From the NCBI RefSeq assembly GCF_003790525.1, contig NZ_CP033634.1: a DNA stretch of 64,000 nt. The stretch is one strand, 5' to 3'. The stretch's first letter is position 1. Every line of letters begins with the position of its first letter. Position numbers and translations under genes: made by a program. Under the pieces are notes generated by a model. That model did not search any database and was not told the DNA's origin. It saw only the letters and a list, made by a program, of their open reading frames with translations. Origin of the DNA: Escherichia coli. Its GTDB lineage: Bacteria; Pseudomonadota; Gammaproteobacteria; Enterobacterales; Enterobacteriaceae. This document shows positions 11,596-19,126 of this stretch, piece by piece.

Positions 11596-12774
11596 TCATA
11601 ACTGGGCTACTGGCAAATCTGTCCATCTGGTGGTATACGCAGGAGAAAGCATTTCCCGTTTCATTTGCCATTCAGGGGCGGTTCCTCGCCCCGCAAACCA
11701 CACTTTCCCTTTTCCAGACTGGTTCAGTTCATCGAGTGTTTTCATTAACTTTTCGCTGTTTTTACGGGGCTGGATCTCATCAAATAATCCCGGCTGCGCT
11801 ATACCCGATGGTGTGAAATCAGCCAGCATGACTCCTGCCTTCATATAGCGGTACCCTTCACGCCAGACATGGTTTAAGGCTCTGCATGCGGCGGCAATAA
11901 TGTCCCGGCTGTCCTGTGTGGGCAATGGAAGCTTTTCCACAGCGGCATTGCTGTAACAGGGTTCTTTTACTGCAAAGGGGGATGTCCGTACAAATGTCGT
12001 CACCTGCCGGCAATACTGACGTTCCCCACGTAGTTTCTCTGCGGCCCGCTCTGCATACTGAACAACAGCCTGGTGCATGGCATCTTTGTCTGTGATTCGT
12101 TCACCAAAACTGCGACTACAGACAATCTGCTGTTTTGCCGGTGGTGCTTCTTCCAGGGATATGCAGGACTCGCCGTTGAGTTCGCGTACCGTACGCTCAA
12201 GAATGACGCTGAAGTTTTTCCGGATGAATGCCGTGTTAGCCTGCGCCAGCTGCAGTGCTGTGTTAATACCCAGCGCATTCAGCTTTTCCGTCAGTCTGCG
12301 TCCTACTCCCCAGACCTCACCAACTGGCTGCAGCCCCAGTAGCTTCAAGGTCCGATTACGGTTTTCTGCCGTCAGCGCGACCACTCCGGAAAACTGTGGC
12401 CATTGCTTTGTTGCCCACTGTGCACTTTTAGCCAGCGTTTTTGTAGGCGCAATGCCCACCCCCATGGTGAGTCCTGTCCAGCTCTTTACCTGTTCCCTGA
12501 GCTGATGACCAAAAACCTCCGGAGAGATGCAATGATTTATCCCCCGCAAATCAATGAACATTTCATCAATTGAGTAGGGCTCAACTGCGGGAGAAAGCGA
12601 CTCCAGAACAGCCATAACCCGTTGGCTCATGCTGTGGTACAGCGCATAATTGCTGGAAAATACATGTATTTTCTTCTCCAGGCGCATTTGTCTCACCTGA
12701 AACCAGGGCTGCCCCATTCTGATGCCAAGGGCTTTTGCCTCCGGGCTGCGCGCGATCACACAGCCATCGTTATT
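11596..12774 (-). pseudogene. impB: impB/umuC-like error-prone DNA polymerase (Y-family), 3' portion lacking the first 33 codons
   Basis: Translation from NNDGCVIARSPEAKALGIRMGQPWF... aligns with UmuC/MucB residues about 32 onward; upstream in-frame sequence is unrelated and stops. Confidence 0.85.
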
Positions 12775-13182
12775 CACCGTTACACGTTTTACACCCTAAA
12801 ATGTTATGAAAAACCTTTCTGAACAAAGCCTGTAGCCTGATTTGTGTAATTCTCATCGATATGAAGCAATAAGTTGAGAATTTTTTAATATGGGGCTCAT
12901 TAATTCTCAACAATTAAGTGTGGCATAACATTAATGTCTAAAACTTCTCAGTCTCGCATGCCAGATTGGTTCGTAGTCGTCGAGTGGTGATTGTGACAAT
13001 AAAGATCGAAACTTATGCTTTATCAACATGGCTATCTTAGATAAGTGTGCCAACAAAGTTTGAAACACACTTTTGCCCCATTATGAGTTACAACCCAAAG
13101 TTCAAACAGTGATGTTGAGGTAACTTTGATATACAAAAAGTAATGAACAGCAAAAGATAAAAGCTGAGCCAATTTGTTCACA

Positions 13183-14271
13183 CTATTCAGTTAGCATGAG
13201 CTTTGCTTTAAGAAACGTAAGTTTGATGTCATCAGTTTTGGTGAACTTGAACTTACCGTCAGTAGAAGCGTTAAACCTTTCAAAATAGTATTCAAGTAGC
13301 GGATCGTACCTGCCACCGTGAACCCAAGTGTAGAACTTACCAAGTTCATAACGTAACTCTTTATCAAGTTCAGATCTTATTCTCAGCTCACTATCGTTTG
13401 CTAGTTCAACGATGTTCATTTCTTGAAGGTTCGTCTTAATCTCTTCAATCAGAGGTAGGAGGGATTCTTTATACTTATCAGCCAATGGTACAAGGTCAGC
13501 GTCAGTTACTTCCGCTTCAAAAATCATAATCAGGTCGTCAATCTCCCCGTTATAGTAATCGTTATCTAATCGTTTTTCTGACTCAGTACGAAGAACATAG
13601 AGTTGTTCTAAAGGATCTAATTTAGTCTCAATTTTTTCTTTTGAAAGTTTGTGTTGATACTCAACAAACAGCGTTTCAATCCTATCAGCAATAACATCAA
13701 GATACTCATATCGAATTCTGAGAAATTCCAACAGCTCATTGATATTGAGGTTTAACGTTAGGTCTTCTTTACCCACATCTCGACTGTACAAATGAACACT
13801 CAAATCGCCAGTGTTGAAATGACTTTGAAATGGCCAACTTGCGAAACGCTTTGAGTTTTCTTGATTCAGATTTACGGGGTGAGCACCGAAACACGCCCTG
13901 ATAGTTTTAAAATAATTATTATCATCTTCATTAGCGAAGAGGCGATCTTTGAAACATTTCTTTTCACCATAAAACGGATCTTTCTTATCAGTTATAAACA
14001 CTCGATGGAGTTGTTTTATTGACTCGAAAATAAGGTCTATTGAAGAGATCAGAGAGTAGACCTGCATACATCTACTATCTATGTTCTTGTCAAACTCAGG
14101 CGCATTTTCTAAGTGGCGAACAGAGACAGAGATCCAATCCATAGCAGAGCAAACGAGGTTAAAAAGATTCTTACCACCTTTATCTTTGTATATTTGATAC
14201 ACAAAGCTAGAGTTTGAGTTAACTAAGTCTCGAAAATCACTGATTTTATCGTCACTAACAACGTTTCTCAT
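13183..14271 (-). CDS. Hypothetical protein, 362 aa, AT-rich cargo gene divergent from the PIN-like/AbiH-like pair
   Basis: Long uninterrupted ORF in low-GC DNA; contains an R-x5-H motif (RACFGAH) that could be HEPN-like, but no family confidently recognised. Confidence 0.65.
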   Translation of the reverse strand: MRNVVSDDKISDFRDLVNSNSSFVYQIYKDKGGKNLFNLVCSAMDWISVSVRHLENAPEFDKNIDSRCMQVYSLISSIDLIFESIKQLHRVFITDKKDPFYGEKKCFKDRLFANEDDNNYFKTIRACFGAHPVNLNQENSKRFASWPFQSHFNTGDLSVHLYSRDVGKEDLTLNLNINELLEFLRIRYEYLDVIADRIETLFVEYQHKLSKEKIETKLDPLEQLYVLRTESEKRLDNDYYNGEIDDLIMIFEAEVTDADLVPLADKYKESLLPLIEEIKTNLQEMNIVELANDSELRIRSELDKELRYELGKFYTWVHGGRYDPLLEYYFERFNASTDGKFKFTKTDDIKLTFLKAKLMLTE

Positions 14272-14706
14272 TCTCTAATCGCCTTCTAACCAATTGAAAA
14301 TATTATGAAGAATGGCAAAAATGATAGTGATAGTTCTTCAATTCTTCAACTTCTTTTTTGATTTGAAGTGAAGTGATACGCTGGGTTTTGTCACTTAGTT
14401 AGATTTGAACGATGAGGATCTCTAGCCAGTTGTATTGCTAGGCATTATCCGAAGACAAATAGAAGAACTGAACCTCGAAGTAACTTTTATCCTAGGACGT
14501 GCTGAAGCTGGTCTCCGCAAACTTGTGATCTAGGCCAACACGCCTTTGCCCCCAAAACATTTAAAGCTATCCCTCATCACACCTTGCTAACTCGTTACTT
14601 GCCCGAATTTTTGTAATGAGCCAATATGCTATTAGTTGGTTATCCACTTAATTGTTTTATCAATTTATTTGATGACAATTTACACCATGTGTTCAAGGTA
14701 TTGATT

Positions 14707-15807
14707 ATGGAATTACAGACAAGGCTAGTTTTTATCGATACAAGCGCTTTTGAAAAGAAAAACTATCAATTTGGGCAACACGCTCTTGGTCGTCTTCAAG
14801 AACTAATTGAGGATGAGAAAATCCACTTGCTCATTACTGATGTGACAAGGAAAGAGATCGACTCCCATCTCAAACACAAATCTGAAGAAGCAGCTTCTAT
14901 GATAAAGAAGATGCAAAGAGATGCGATGTTCCTAAGAAACACCCCCGACCTTGATTGTCATGGCATCTTCACCAAGATTAAAGGTGATGATATTTATGCT
15001 GTTATCAGTGAAAAATTTGATGATTTCGTCGAAAACGGCTACGTCGAAACAATTGATGTAAGCACTGTTAACCCTCAAGTTGTATTTGATGCTTACTTCA
15101 ACAACCTTCCTCCTTTTGGCAAAGAATCAAAAAAGCACGAGTTTCCTGATGCATTTGCGCTAGAAGCTATTAAACAGGTGAGCTTGGCTAGAGGATATTC
15201 AGCCTATATCGTTAGTGACGACGGCGATATGAAATCATTCTGTGAGAAAGAAGATAACTTCATTCATCTTGAAAATGTCGATGACCTAATTGACTTGATT
15301 GTTCGAAGCGACAAAGCGTACGAAGAACCAGCCAAATTTGCTGATGAAATATTCGAACAACTCCTAGAACAAATCAAAGCGGATGCCCTGCAAGCTCTCG
15401 AAGATGGCGAGTTCAACTATGAAAACGCAGATCCTTTCGATGAGACTATCAATTCTATAGAAATCAACTCGGTGAATGTTGGGAAGAAAAACTTACAGAA
15501 TGTCGATGCCGAGTGGGCTGAATACGAAGTAGAATTTGAGGTGGTTGTTACGGCAGATTATCGATTCTCAGATTATGACCGTTCACCTTGGGACCCTGAA
15601 GACAAGCAATATGTATTCGTCTTGAGTAATGAGTCAACAGTAAAACACAAAGAAACATACACTGCCCACATAACACTTGCCTATACCGATGGATTAAAAG
15701 CTAACGCATACATTGAAGAGTTTTACTTCCAAGATACATATTTTGAGCTGACTGATAATGACTCCGAAGTCATTAGCTTCAAAGAACTAGATATCAACGG
15801 TGAATGA
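14707..15807 (+). CDS. PIN-like domain protein (DUF4935-like), 366 aa
   Basis: N-terminus MELQTRLVFIDTSAFEKKNYQF... resembles PIN-like DUF4935 openings; stop TGA at 15805-15807 lies one base before the start of the next gene. Confidence 0.65.
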   Translation: MELQTRLVFIDTSAFEKKNYQFGQHALGRLQELIEDEKIHLLITDVTRKEIDSHLKHKSEEAASMIKKMQRDAMFLRNTPDLDCHGIFTKIKGDDIYAVISEKFDDFVENGYVETIDVSTVNPQVVFDAYFNNLPPFGKESKKHEFPDAFALEAIKQVSLARGYSAYIVSDDGDMKSFCEKEDNFIHLENVDDLIDLIVRSDKAYEEPAKFADEIFEQLLEQIKADALQALEDGEFNYENADPFDETINSIEINSVNVGKKNLQNVDAEWAEYEVEFEVVVTADYRFSDYDRSPWDPEDKQYVFVLSNESTVKHKETYTAHITLAYTDGLKANAYIEEFYFQDTYFELTDNDSEVISFKELDINGE

Positions 15808-15808
15808 C

Positions 15809-16277
15809 ATGAAGCTATATGTAATAGGTAATGGCTTTGATGTTCATCATGGCCTTGACACTAGGTATACATCTTTTGGGCTTTATCTCAAAAATAACTA
15901 CTGGGAAACTTATGAACTATTGCTCGACTATTACGGGTTTGCTGACTTAGACCCAGATTTTCCAACAACAATGTCAGACCCTTTATGGTCTGAATTTGAA
16001 ACGAGTATGTCACTGCTTGATAAAGATTCAGTTTTGGAAGCAAACATGGATGCAATGCCAAACTATTCTTCAGATGACTTTCGAGACAGAGACCGATACA
16101 CGCTTGAAATTGAGATGGAGCGAATACTTGGCCTTCTAACCACTGAACTGTATAAAGCATTCAAAGAGTTCATTTTGGCTGTACAGTTTCCTCAGTTTGA
16201 TCACAGCCGATCAGTAAACATTGATAGAGACGCTGTTTACCTCACATTCAACTACACAGATACGCTTTCTCAATACT
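15809..16277 (+). pseudogene. AbiH-like abortive-infection protein, N-terminal 156 codons, truncated by IS2
   Basis: MKLYVIGNGFDVHHGLDTRYTSF matches the AbiH family N-terminal signature; reading frame runs into the IS2 left end at 16278, so the ORF-track tail to 16327 is IS2-encoded. Confidence 0.7.
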
Positions 16278-16368
16278 TAGACTGGCTCCCTGAATCTCCA
16301 GACAACCAGTATCACTTAAATAAGTGATAGTCTTAATACTAGTTTTTAGACTAGTCATTGGAGAACAG

Positions 16369-16734
16369 ATGATTGATGTCTTAGGGCCGGAGAAACGCAG
16401 ACGGCGTACCACACAGGAAAAGATCGCAATTGTTCAGCAGAGCTTTGAACCGGGGATGACGGTCTCCCTCGTTGCCCGGCAACATGGTGTAGCAGCCAGC
16501 CAGTTATTTCTCTGGCGTAAGCAATACCAGGAAGGAAGTCTTACTGCTGTCGCCGCCGGAGAACAGGTTGTTCCTGCCTCTGAACTTGCTGCCGCCATGA
16601 AGCAGATTAAAGAACTCCAGCGCCTGCTCGGCAAGAAAACGATGGAAAATGAACTCCTCAAAGAAGCCGTTGAATATGGACGGGCAAAAAAGTGGATAGC
16701 GCACGCGCCCTTATTGCCCGGGGATGGGGAGTAA
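16369..16734 (+). CDS. insC: IS2 OrfA (InsC)
   Basis: [56 protein letters not shown]... Confidence 0.9.
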
Positions 16735-17597
16735 GCTTAGTCAGCCGTTGTCTCCGGGTGTCGCGTGCGCAGTTGCACGTCATTCTCAGACGAACCGATG
16801 ACTGGATGGATGGCCGCCGCAGTCGTCACACTGATGATACGGATGTGCTTCTCCGTATACACCATGTTATCGGAGAGCTGCCCACGTATGGTTATCGTCG
16901 GGTATGGGCGCTGCTTCGCAGACAGGCAGAACTTGATGGTATGCCTGCGATCAATGCCAAACGTGTTTACCGGATCATGCGCCAGAATGCGCTGTTGCTT
17001 GAGCGAAAACCTGCTGTACCGCCATCGAAACGGGCACATACAGGCAGAGTGGCCGTGAAAGAAAGCAATCAGCGATGGTGCTCTGACGGGTTCGAGTTCT
17101 GCTGTGATAACGGAGAGAGACTGCGTGTCACGTTCGCGCTGGACTGCTGTGATCGTGAGGCACTGCACTGGGCGGTCACTACCGGCGGCTTCAACAGTGA
17201 AACAGTACAGGACGTCATGCCAGGAGCGGTGGAACGCCGCTTCGGCAACGATCTTCCGTCGTCTCCAGTGGAGTGGCTGACGGATAATGGTTCATGCTAC
17301 CGGGCTAATGAAACACGCCAGTTCGCCCGGATGTTGGGACTTGAACCGAAGAACACGGCGGTGCGGAGTCCGGAGAGTAACGGAATAGCAGAGAGCTTCG
17401 TGAAAACGATAAAGCGTGACTACATCAGTATCATGCCCAAACCAGACGGGTTAACGGCAGCAAAGAACCTTGCAGAGGCGTTCGAGCATTATAACGAATG
17501 GCATCCGCATAGTGCGCTGGGTTATCGCTCGCCACGGGAATATCTGCGGCAGCGGGCTTGTAATGGGTTAAGTGATAACAGATGTCTGGAAATATAG
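16692..17597 (+). CDS. insD: IS2 OrfB (InsD), DDE transposase; expressed with OrfA by programmed -1 frameshift
   Basis: ORF overlaps orfA in the -1 frame; contains the IS3-family DDE region ([17 protein letters not shown]). Confidence 0.9.
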
Positions 17598-17705
17598 GGG
17601 CAAATCCAGTGATATCCAATTCATTCAGTCTGTAAACACAATAGTGGACATTCTCACATTGTCAAACGTGTATAGTTAGAGAGTGGAAGTAAAAGTGTAT
17701 GGGTG

Positions 17706-17804
17706 GTTATTGCTGAGTACGATGACCGGTTCGTTGCGAAGGTCCGGGCGGAAAACTTTTTCACATGAGGCGTAGAAACTGTTGATATCAGCCAGTGCAA
17801 ACAT
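17706..17804 (-). pseudogene. impB: impB 5' fragment (first 33 codons) separated from the rest by the 4.9-kb insertion
   Basis: Minus strand reads ATG TTT GCA CTG GCT GAT ATC... = MFALADINSFYASCEKVFRPDLRNEPVIVLSNN; start overlaps impA stop (TGATG). Confidence 0.8.
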
Positions 17805-18241
17805 CAGCGTAACTCCCGCGTCCTGTGTATCACGTGAGTGACAACACCAAAAATACAGATGTTTTCCGGATACAGTGTGCGGAACTCCGGGCTGTCTGAA
17901 ACCGGCTCCAGTGCCGGGCGTGGGCGCAACAGCAGTCGTTTGACGGTGAACTCACCATCGATCTCAGCGATAACGATGTCCCCGTGTTGTGGTTTTTCGG
18001 CCCTGTCCACTACCAGCAGATCACCATTCTGCACGCCAGCCTGGTTCATCGATTCACCGCTGGCGCGCAGAAAGAAGGTGGCTGCAGGTCTGCTGATGCA
18101 ATAGCTGTTCAGATCCAGTTCCTGCTCAGCATAATCAGTGGCAGGCGAAGGAAAACCGGCCAGGCAACGATCGGCAAACAACGGTCGCACGTAACTGTCA
18201 TTGCCTGAAGGGTCAGCCGGACGGTGATAAACGGTACTCAT
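17804..18241 (-). CDS. impA: ImpA (UmuD/MucA-like, LexA-type S24 peptidase fold)
   Basis: 145 aa; FPSPATDYAEQELDLN and ASGESMNQAGVQNGDLLVVD align with UmuD. Confidence 0.9.
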   Translation of the reverse strand: MSTVYHRPADPSGNDSYVRPLFADRCLAGFPSPATDYAEQELDLNSYCISRPAATFFLRASGESMNQAGVQNGDLLVVDRAEKPQHGDIVIAEIDGEFTVKRLLLRPRPALEPVSDSPEFRTLYPENICIFGVVTHVIHRTRELR

Positions 18242-18486
18242 GCTGCAGGCAGCCAGCTGTCGTCCTGCCAGATTTCTTCCAGCAGAGACAGGATACGTTC
18301 TTTATCCTTGTCGTTGCGGGCTCCTGTGACAGATACAGACGGGGCGCTGCCCTGGTCTATACGCAGCCAGATTTCCGGGTAGTGTGGTTTCAGACGTCGT
18401 TCGATTTCATTCTGTAGCGCCTGAAGTGTGCCTGATTTGAGGTTTTTTGTGCTCTGGCGGTCGAAAAGAATTTCAATGCGGATCAT
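18238..18486 (-). CDS. impC: ImpC, small first gene of the impCAB operon
   Basis: 82-aa product MIRIEILFDRQSTKNLKSGTLQALQNEIERRLKPHYPEIW...; RBS GGGAG upstream; overlaps impA start by 4 bp. Confidence 0.8.
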   Translation of the reverse strand: MIRIEILFDRQSTKNLKSGTLQALQNEIERRLKPHYPEIWLRIDQGSAPSVSVTGARNDKDKERILSLLEEIWQDDSWLPAA

Positions 18487-18509
18487 GTTCTCATCTCCCT
18501 TTTCTTTTG

Positions 18510-18525
18510 CTGTATGTATATACAG
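18510..18525. promoter_or_regulatory. LexA box (SOS operator) upstream of impC
   Basis: CTGTATGTATATACAG fits CTGT-N8-ACAG, 24 bp upstream of the impC ATG. Confidence 0.75.
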
Positions 18526-19126
18526 TATTCTAATAACTGAATCCACACACAGTCAAATGTCATTATTGTGACTAAAAAACGCTCAATTCTCTGAGGGTGT
18601 GGCTGTATGCCTGCTGTGGACTGCTGTGTCCAGCTTATCCACAGCATTTTGCGCACGGTTCTGTGAATAAAATACCTGGTTACCCAGGCCGTGCCGGCAC
18701 GTTAACCGGGCTGCATCCAATGCAAGTGTGTCGCTGTCGCCGGCATCCTCACCAGGTCACTCAGCAGTCAGGGAGAAAAATGGCGGATGAAGTATGACGG
18801 AGACGGTCGGGCAAGTGCCCGTTTCTTTTCCGACAAAGGATGTCGCCGTGCTCCTCTTTTTACTGCGCCGGCTGACGCGGCGCGGCATAAACGCTGCCTG
18901 TGGTCAGTGTCCCGCGTCCGGCGGGCACGGGACGGGCGCTTTTACCGCTCCCGGCTGGCACCGGTGACAGTGTACGCCAGCCCGTCGCCCTTTTCTGATG
19001 AACGCCCTTCAAGCCGCTTTCGCGAATGAAAGGGACATCTTATTCGGTCTTTACGCTGGAGAGTTACTTTGGAAGACTGCGTCAACACGATGATAAGCGT
19101 ACAAAGCCATTGTTAAGGGATCCTCT

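Follow-up and report, generated by a model that had tools for sequence, protein, structure and literature searches.

A tightly spaced PIN_12-AbiH gene pair of a gammaproteobacterial clade, a candidate anti-phage cassette truncated by IS2 in Escherichia coli

The PIN_12-AbiH locus and its junction

We analysed a 64,000-nucleotide stretch of Escherichia coli DNA (contig NZ_CP033634.1; the whole stretch is referred to below as the window), in which an intact gene of the PIN_12 family is followed on the plus strand by the 5′ fragment of an AbiH-family gene that ends where the insertion sequence (IS) IS2 begins. A sequence-only reading of the window had taken the two genes for a translationally coupled unit and a candidate abortive-infection module. 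The interpretation that we favour, and to which we give an even chance, is that they represent a clade-specific two-gene AbiH anti-phage cassette, inactivated in the window.

The PIN_12 gene (14707..15807, plus strand), delimited from the open reading frame (ORF) map and the raw sequence, starts at ATG 14707-14709, opens with MELQTRLVFIDTSAFEK, runs for 366 codons and ends at TGA 15805-15807. Its product matches the whole of Pfam model PF16289, formerly DUF4935 (E 4.7e-36, model positions 1-172 of 172), which bears out the earlier assignment to a PIN-like, DUF4935-type family. The protein comprises an N-terminal VapC-like PIN nuclease domain (residues ~1-200) and a beta-rich C-terminal domain (~235-366), and shows a PIN fold with four or five conserved acidic residues. 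All acidic residues of the VapC-like, putatively metal-dependent nuclease domain are intact, the C-terminal domain is specific to the family, and the gene is 100% identical to the PIN gene of intact pairs. The protein had no matches in PADLOC, NCBIfam or PHROGs; the protein models of PADLOC-DB v2.0.0, searched at E values up to 0.01, matched neither it nor three other PIN_12 proteins, and sequence searches against PDB chains with both the PIN_12 and AbiH families returned nothing meaningful.

Public annotation places the PIN start at ATG 14626, giving a 393-aa protein, whereas an alignment of eleven upstream regions identifies ATG 14707, with its AAGGT Shine-Dalgarno sequence, as the conserved start; most homologues are 366-372 aa long. 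The 27 additional N-terminal residues of the annotated protein (window 14626-14706) are probably not translated. The preceding interval (14545..14706, plus strand) appears to be the conserved leader or promoter region of the operon: homology to a 92%-identical copy on a Shewanella baltica plasmid starts at window position 14545, and a conserved block together with the AAGGT sequence precedes ATG 14707 in close relatives. A promoter consensus scan yielded 9 sites against 8.5 expected, the promoter and terminator consensus scan being no different from shuffled sequences, and a search of window 12700-17800 against Rfam gave no match. An intergenic stretch of 435 nt separates the PIN gene from a divergent upstream gene of 362 aa.

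The two genes meet at a junction (15799..15811, plus strand; GGTGAATGAcATG) that can be read directly from the sequence. The Shine-Dalgarno sequence of AbiH is embedded within the last codons of the PIN gene, and is followed by the PIN stop codon, the single base 15808 and the AbiH start codon at ATG 15809-15811. The AbiH gene opens with MKLYVIGNGFDVHHGLDTRYTSF and survives as a 5′ fragment (15809..16277, plus strand) that corresponds, by comparison with an intact homologue, to codons 1-156 of 319. Its frame holds 156 complete codons (15809-16276), in agreement with the earlier estimate, and continues for 16 further codons inside IS2. Matches to positions 1-155 of the 260 in PF14253 (E 2.1e-29) and to PADLOC's AbiH model (1.4e-12) uphold the earlier attribution of this fragment to AbiH; the intact 319-aa homologue gives 1.9e-64 and 1.1e-29 (PDLC02345), respectively. 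The window copy falls short of the full length of the family (~290-350 aa), which intact copies elsewhere reach. Every coordinate given in the sequence-only reading (TGA 15805-15807, ATG 15809, IS2 from 16278) holds.

Truncation of AbiH and the IS2-linked deletion

IS2 (16278..17608, plus strand) was identified from its ends (TAGACTGG at 16278, and GGGGCAAATCCA), its insA/insB ORFs (16324-17597) and the annotation of the same element in the identical record NZ_CP129283.1. It measures 1331 bp, the reference length of IS2. In an alignment to a Shigella dysenteriae IncI-gamma/K1 plasmid (L002) that carries the intact arrangement, window position 16277 corresponds to 8349 and window position 17609 to 14906 of that locus; 6.56 kb has therefore been replaced by IS2, namely AbiH codons 157-319 and four further genes of the integrative element in which the operon resides. 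The pentanucleotides flanking IS2 differ from each other (ATACT and GTGAT), with no target duplication, as would be expected of an IS-mediated adjacent deletion and not of a simple insertion. This link between IS2 and the 6.56-kb loss, like the conserved PIN start at 14707 and not 14626, goes beyond what had been read from the window earlier.

The truncated AbiH retains the GNGFD motif (residues 7-11) and N148. Having lost the invariant His168 together with the entire C-terminal half of the fold, the window copy is inactive, as had been thought probable, which leaves a dead AbiH arm and an intact PIN gene alone. The window is identical to the E. coli plasmid NZ_CP129283.1, and a plasmid carrying PIN without a functional AbiH is evidently maintained. 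The intact pair, with an AbiH of 319 aa, was found on 23 other plasmids and in 27 complete E. coli genomes, the overall tally being 24 plasmids and 28 of the 5426 complete genomes covered; these copies are cargo of the umuC-targeting element described below. The decayed copy in the window marks the system and indicates nothing functional beyond that.

The pair is conserved as an operon within one clade

To place the window copy among its relatives, two sets of loci were compiled: 149 seeded with PIN_12 (79 from a collection of one genome per species, 66 from viral contigs and four look-ups) and 83 seeded with AbiH (80 from viral contigs and three look-ups). Iterated local profiles of AbiH were run over the former and of PIN over the latter. 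The intact homologous pairs that a neighbourhood search had been proposed to reveal do exist. PIN-then-AbiH pairs were found in some 12 lineages, representing some 9 genera, always in the same order and at 59-100% identity. They are found in Photobacterium ganghwense, Vibrio crassostreae, Bermanella, Vibrio ouci, Pseudoalteromonas gelatinilytica, Idiomarina ramblicola, Shewanella, Aeromonas bivalvium, Acinetobacter and Vibrio harveyi, as well as in the enterobacterial element represented in the window and on the Shewanella baltica plasmid mentioned above. Across the pairs from other genera, identity to the window copy ranges from 97% to 59% for PIN and from 98% to 59% for AbiH.

The junction of these pairs follows the pattern GGTGA-A-TGA/TAA-N-ATG. 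Eight of the ten have a gap of 1 nt; in L007 it is 2 nt, and in the V. harveyi pair (L166), the most divergent of all, 11 nt. The PIN stop codon varies between TGA and TAA across the other-genus pairs, with the spacing held constant. The two proteins have also diverged together: pairwise PIN and AbiH distances correlate closely (Pearson r = 0.96, 45 comparisons). AbiH was moreover the sole recurrent tight same-strand neighbour among the 149 PIN_12 loci. None of the other 41 tight neighbours went beyond singletons or triplets, and a Pfam scan of 27 of these placed them in unrelated families; other recurrent or sirtuin-like PIN_12 partners were rejected on these grounds.

These observations indicate that the PIN-AbiH pair is a real, co-inherited operon. 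Since the AbiH ribosome binding site lies in the last PIN codons and only one base separates stop from start, translation of the two genes is predicted to be coupled. The association is limited to one gammaproteobacterial clade, whose members have both proteins at 59% identity or more to the window copy, plus one isolated case in reversed order. Of the earlier proposal that the genes are coupled and function as a unit, the first half is upheld by the tight spacing and the co-inheritance, joint function being a possibility.

A different account of the same arrangement is that two autonomous single-gene defence genes have been stacked on one transcript, their tight junction reflecting nothing other than compaction in mobile elements. 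AbiH would then work by itself, as in other lineages, and the PIN_12 gene would be a distinct accessory or defence gene. We regard this as a real possibility, although one appreciably short of an even chance. It fits poorly with the retention of gene order and of a 1-2 nt spacing despite changes of stop codon and a divergence of the proteins down to 72% identity (11 nt at 59%), with the placement of the AbiH Shine-Dalgarno sequence inside PIN coding sequence, with the position of AbiH as the only recurrent operonic partner of PIN_12, and with the correlated divergence of both proteins. The evidence in its favour comes from the distribution of solo copies, considered below.

Predicted fold of AbiH and the case for defence

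In the predicted model, AbiH adopts a SIR2 (Rossmann-type) fold. Three motifs, GNGFD (7-11), FNYTD (containing N148) and IHG (containing H168), are invariant in 30 homologues, and each follows a beta strand in the model. Sirtuins bind NAD through a glycine motif and have a catalytic Asn and His, and we infer that the AbiH motifs resemble these features. The nearest structural neighbours of the model are defence sirtuins, not deacetylases. A 2026 review describes lactococcal AbiH as sirtuin-like and suggests NAD+ depletion, although AbiH, which has been known since 1996 and appears in every census of defence systems, is listed there with trigger and mechanism unknown (PMC13064643).

Pairs and members of the two families have as neighbours Hachiman-like, UvrD/DUF4365, Mrr, cyclic-oligonucleotide-based anti-phage signalling system (CBASS), reverse transcriptase, Gabija-like and DarT genes as well as integrases, and the pair recurs in defence islands, at prophage ends and in integrase islands. 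Genes of the AbiH family have, moreover, conferred resistance to phages in experiments. It could nevertheless be supposed that the pair serves a purpose other than defence, with AbiH acting as a sirtuin-type deacylase or ADP-ribosyltransferase and the PIN protein as an RNase in element transfer, stress response or host physiology. Some solo PIN_12 genes do sit among metabolic genes (L238), sirtuins with non-defence roles exist, and the experimental evidence for AbiH protection comes only from distant members of the family. We consider such a role very unlikely because of the strong Pfam and PADLOC matches to AbiH, the structural neighbours of the model and the genomic contexts just described.

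Pairing is obligate for neither family

The sequence-only reading had envisaged obligate pairing of AbiH with its PIN-like partner, and this part of it has to be given up. A PIN_12 gene was present within 5 kb in 0 of the 83 AbiH-seeded loci (23-63% identity), AbiH was absent from 138 of the 149 PIN_12 loci, and PIN homologues at 50-57% identity stand alone. Solo copies occur even within the clade, and AbiH suffices as a single gene elsewhere. Pairing is thus obligate for neither family. A search for partner remnants in five solo loci (L008, L083, L164, L167 and L168) found none.

Several observations weigh against the favoured reading of a clade-specific two-gene cassette. An Arsukibacterium locus (L008, 7101-7125) carries an intact solo PIN gene 85% identical to that of the window, and similarity to a paired locus breaks off precisely where AbiH would begin. 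AbiH stands alone in a viral contig (L083, 63% identity) and in Vibrio lentus (L164, 57%), the latter in a locus syntenic with the paired one of V. harveyi; a UvrD-like gene is common to these two Vibrio loci (nucleotide identity 72%), as is AbiH (65%), with PIN cleanly present in one and absent from the other. Lengths and domains are equal in paired and solo versions, and no fusion proteins joining PIN_12 to AbiH were found. The only other adjacency of the two families, in an uncultured Aquimarina (L065), is not kept in the nearest relatives. Sufficiency of AbiH as a single gene has been demonstrated, if in three distant lineages only (Lactococcus, Streptococcus and Vibrio). The equivalence of N148 and H168 to the catalytic residues of sirtuins is drawn from motif and topology. 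Finally, with a single origin of the pairing, its conservation may in part reflect inheritance and not selection.

Much of the same distribution is what the stacking of two autonomous genes would produce. Both families are overwhelmingly solo, and a classification of PIN proteins (Matelska et al. 2017, PMC5499597) reported that DUF4935 genes, to which it gave no function, are usually monocistronic. Either gene can be cleanly present or absent inside the clade, and solo PIN_12 genes occupy mobile or defence settings independently, whether following a Gabija-like pair, adjoining DarT, within cassette-like arrays or carried by IncI-type plasmids. A Vibrio AbiH alone, cloned as a 1379-bp insert, conferred 5.7 logs of protection (10.1101/2024.06.14.598830). 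AbiH is likewise active in Streptococcus thermophilus (PMC12322248), and the Lactococcus AbiH was obtained as a one-gene clone (Prevots 1996, as cited in PMC13064643); the literature thus agrees with the earlier statement that AbiH is usually a single-gene system.

The solo copies bear also on the idea of a toxin-antitoxin-like pair, in which one protein, PIN or sirtuin, would be restrained by the other and released on infection. The PIN domain is VapC-like, the genes are tightly coupled and many Abi systems are of such a type (PMC13064643). This explanation is nonetheless barely credible, because each gene persists intact alone, where an unneutralised toxin should not survive, and because the window plasmid keeps PIN without a functional AbiH. 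At 366 aa and first in order, with no small partner ORF, the PIN gene also differs from VapC. VapC toxins are ~130 aa long and are preceded by a small antitoxin gene; no such arrangement of a small antitoxin directly upstream of a ~130-aa toxin is found at the window PIN gene.

The Aquimarina locus (L065, 550-2578) has AbiH (31% identity), then 76 nt, then PIN_12 (27%), in reversed order. It was considered as a second, independent paired lineage and rejected, since its PIN is an orphan whose nearest relatives (33-34%) include none with AbiH. PIN_12 proteins of ~617 aa from Clostridia and of 1157 aa were examined as Rosetta-stone fusions and rejected for want of an AbiH or SIR2 domain. In five metagenome-assembled genomes of Clostridia (L067, L072, L075, L077 and L080), PIN_12 proteins reach ~612-620 aa through some 240 additional residues at the C-terminus, a region without a Pfam or PADLOC match.

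Solo copies of both families were also seen in other settings. In L168 (2218-6101), a PIN_12 gene (55%) lies 31 nt downstream of a Gabija-like pair of OLD-TOPRIM ATPase and UvrD helicase, with a PLD/DEAD-helicase gene downstream of it. PIN_12 adjoins DarT/DUF6939 in L241. In Aliivibrio fischeri (L237, 1741-13948), a solo PIN_12 lies in a long same-strand array of small genes that resembles the cassettes of a chromosomal integron and includes acetyltransferases, glyoxalases, Fic and YhfG. In Salmonella enterica (L165, 5001-5966), a P2-like prophage has a solo AbiH (45%) at its end, by tail-fibre and tail-assembly genes, a site typical of prophage defence cargo.

Proposed origin and mode of action

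The comparison of paired and solo loci suggests that an autonomous AbiH gained a PIN gene in front of it, with the V. lentus locus resembling the state before this event and that of V. harveyi the state after it; the junction would subsequently have tightened from 11 nt to 1 nt. The two Vibrio loci offer a natural comparison for the gain or the loss of the operon. As judged from sequence, the pair had a single origin, in Gammaproteobacteria, and is spread as cargo by mobile elements. In the favoured reading as a two-gene cassette, AbiH would be the ancestrally autonomous effector, and the PIN add-on a second activity or a modulator that is not indispensable.

We envisage transcription of both genes from a single promoter upstream of 14707, with reinitiation at AbiH by ribosomes that have completed PIN. 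On phage infection, AbiH would consume NAD+, as other defence sirtuins do, the PIN protein would cleave RNA, and the two putative activities together would abort the infection. As far as sequence goes, the proteins may act jointly or may be two co-expressed autonomous products.

A more ambitious version of this proposal, which we hold tentatively and with less than even confidence, is that of a true two-component system, which would make the pair a new subtype of AbiH. Here a VapC-like nuclease would physically partner a sirtuin-like AbiH, with RNA cleavage and NAD+ consumption triggered jointly or one activating the other. By extension, the large and mostly solo DUF4935/PIN_12 family would be a new one of mobile single-gene defence nucleases, and the pair, PIN-only and AbiH-only variants in syntenic loci would form a natural dissection series for the mechanism of AbiH.

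The carrier integrative element

In the window, the operon is cargo of an integrative-element remnant (12775..17705) inserted in impB, a gene of the umuC family, on a conjugative plasmid; the remnant was delimited from its inverted ends and flanks. The ends, CACCGTTACACGTTTTAC (12775-12792) and GTAAAAGTGTATGGGTG (17689-17705), are imperfectly inverted, and can be compared as inverted repeats of ~18 bp as CACCCATACACTTTTAC and CACCGTTACACGTTTTAC. GTTATT flanks the element at 12769-12774 and at 17706-17711 (AATAAC at both sides). The 5′ part of impB (MFALADINSFYASCEKVFRPDLRNEPVIVLSNN; 17706..17804, minus strand) ends in ...VLSNN, and the ORF continues from ...VLSNN as DGCVIARS in the 3′ part (11596..12774, minus strand). 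Next to the 5′ part come an impA/umuD-like gene (17804-18241, minus strand) and then impC (18238-18546, minus strand). Downstream of this impCAB remnant, at window 19127-20143 on the plus strand, is a 338-aa ORF that, from a reading of its translation alone, resembles an IS110-family transposase.

The other cargo gene is the 362-aa orphan (13183..14271, minus strand), divergent from the PIN gene. It has no match in PADLOC, NCBIfam or PHROGs, and its tblastn matches lie solely in copies of the enterobacterial element. This gene was considered as a third component of the system and rejected, as it is not found beside the pair in other genera.

In the intact element, which is ~10 kb long, the gene for a tyrosine recombinase (509 aa) is followed by three overlapping genes (616, 663 and 146 aa) and then by the cargo, in the order AbiH, PIN and the 362-aa orphan; the IS2-linked deletion in the window has taken away the recombinase genes. 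The recombinase similarity of the 509-aa protein appears as weak NCBIfam matches, and the other three proteins match no family, the 663-aa protein being without a Pfam match. The element occupies identical codons in the plasmid impB of L002 and in the chromosomal umuC of E. coli NCTC86 (L236, 8159-18308), where its flanks are AATAAT and AATAAC. The insertion point, SNN|DG, is common to plasmid impB, NCTC86 umuC and a Providencia umuC homologue.

A carried 6-bp sequence is a hallmark of strand-biased circularizing integrative elements (SE) and of Tn554 (PMC10214605). The carrier resembles SE in its tyrosine recombinase and three overlapping genes, its site-specific insertion, its imperfect inverted ends of ~18 bp and the 6-bp sequence carried beside one end. 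It differs in that only the first of its four genes has a recombinase signature, whereas the SE core consists of intA-tfp-intB-srap. SE are the closest known match to the carrier, though not to the operon. From these features the carrier looks like an element of the SE or Tn554-like kind with umuC-family genes as its target, and the pair exemplifies putative defence cargo moved by such a umuC-targeting integrative element between chromosomes and conjugative plasmids.

Comparison with known systems

Both genes already bear the names AbiH and PIN_12 in automatic annotation. We found no report in the searchable literature that couples AbiH with a PIN or DUF4935 gene; the conserved PIN-AbiH operon is not described there, and no PADLOC 2.0.0 model matches its PIN component. 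The DUF4935/PIN_12 family is widespread, and the operon provides a testable handle on it and on AbiH. Close relatives supply natural controls (PIN only and AbiH only), and E. coli sources of the pair include the NCTC86 chromosome and IncI/K plasmids.

The AbiH component resembles the single-gene AbiH of Lactococcus lactis S94, as represented in PADLOC and DefenseFinder, in its family hidden Markov model match, predicted sirtuin-like fold and size (319 versus 346 aa). In the AbiH systems described so far, one gene is expressed from a promoter of its own, whereas here AbiH is the second cistron, 1 nt behind a 366-aa PIN_12 gene. The likeness to SIR2-HerA (Nezha) is loose, extending to a SIR2 fold combined with a second enzyme. 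The partner in our pair is a PIN nuclease, and not the HerA ATPase of that system or a TIR signal generator as in Thoeris (ThsA/ThsB). Relative to both systems there is, moreover, no SLOG or other sensor domain and no similarity at the sequence level, and the pairing is facultative at the level of the families.

On the PIN side, the protein is three times larger than the VapC of VapBC modules, has an extra C-terminal domain and no upstream antitoxin gene, and is stable on its own. It shares with the DUF4935/PIN_12 family the whole of the Pfam model, the conserved acidic residues and the two-domain architecture. Within that family, the clade described here is exceptional in having a recurrent operonic partner.

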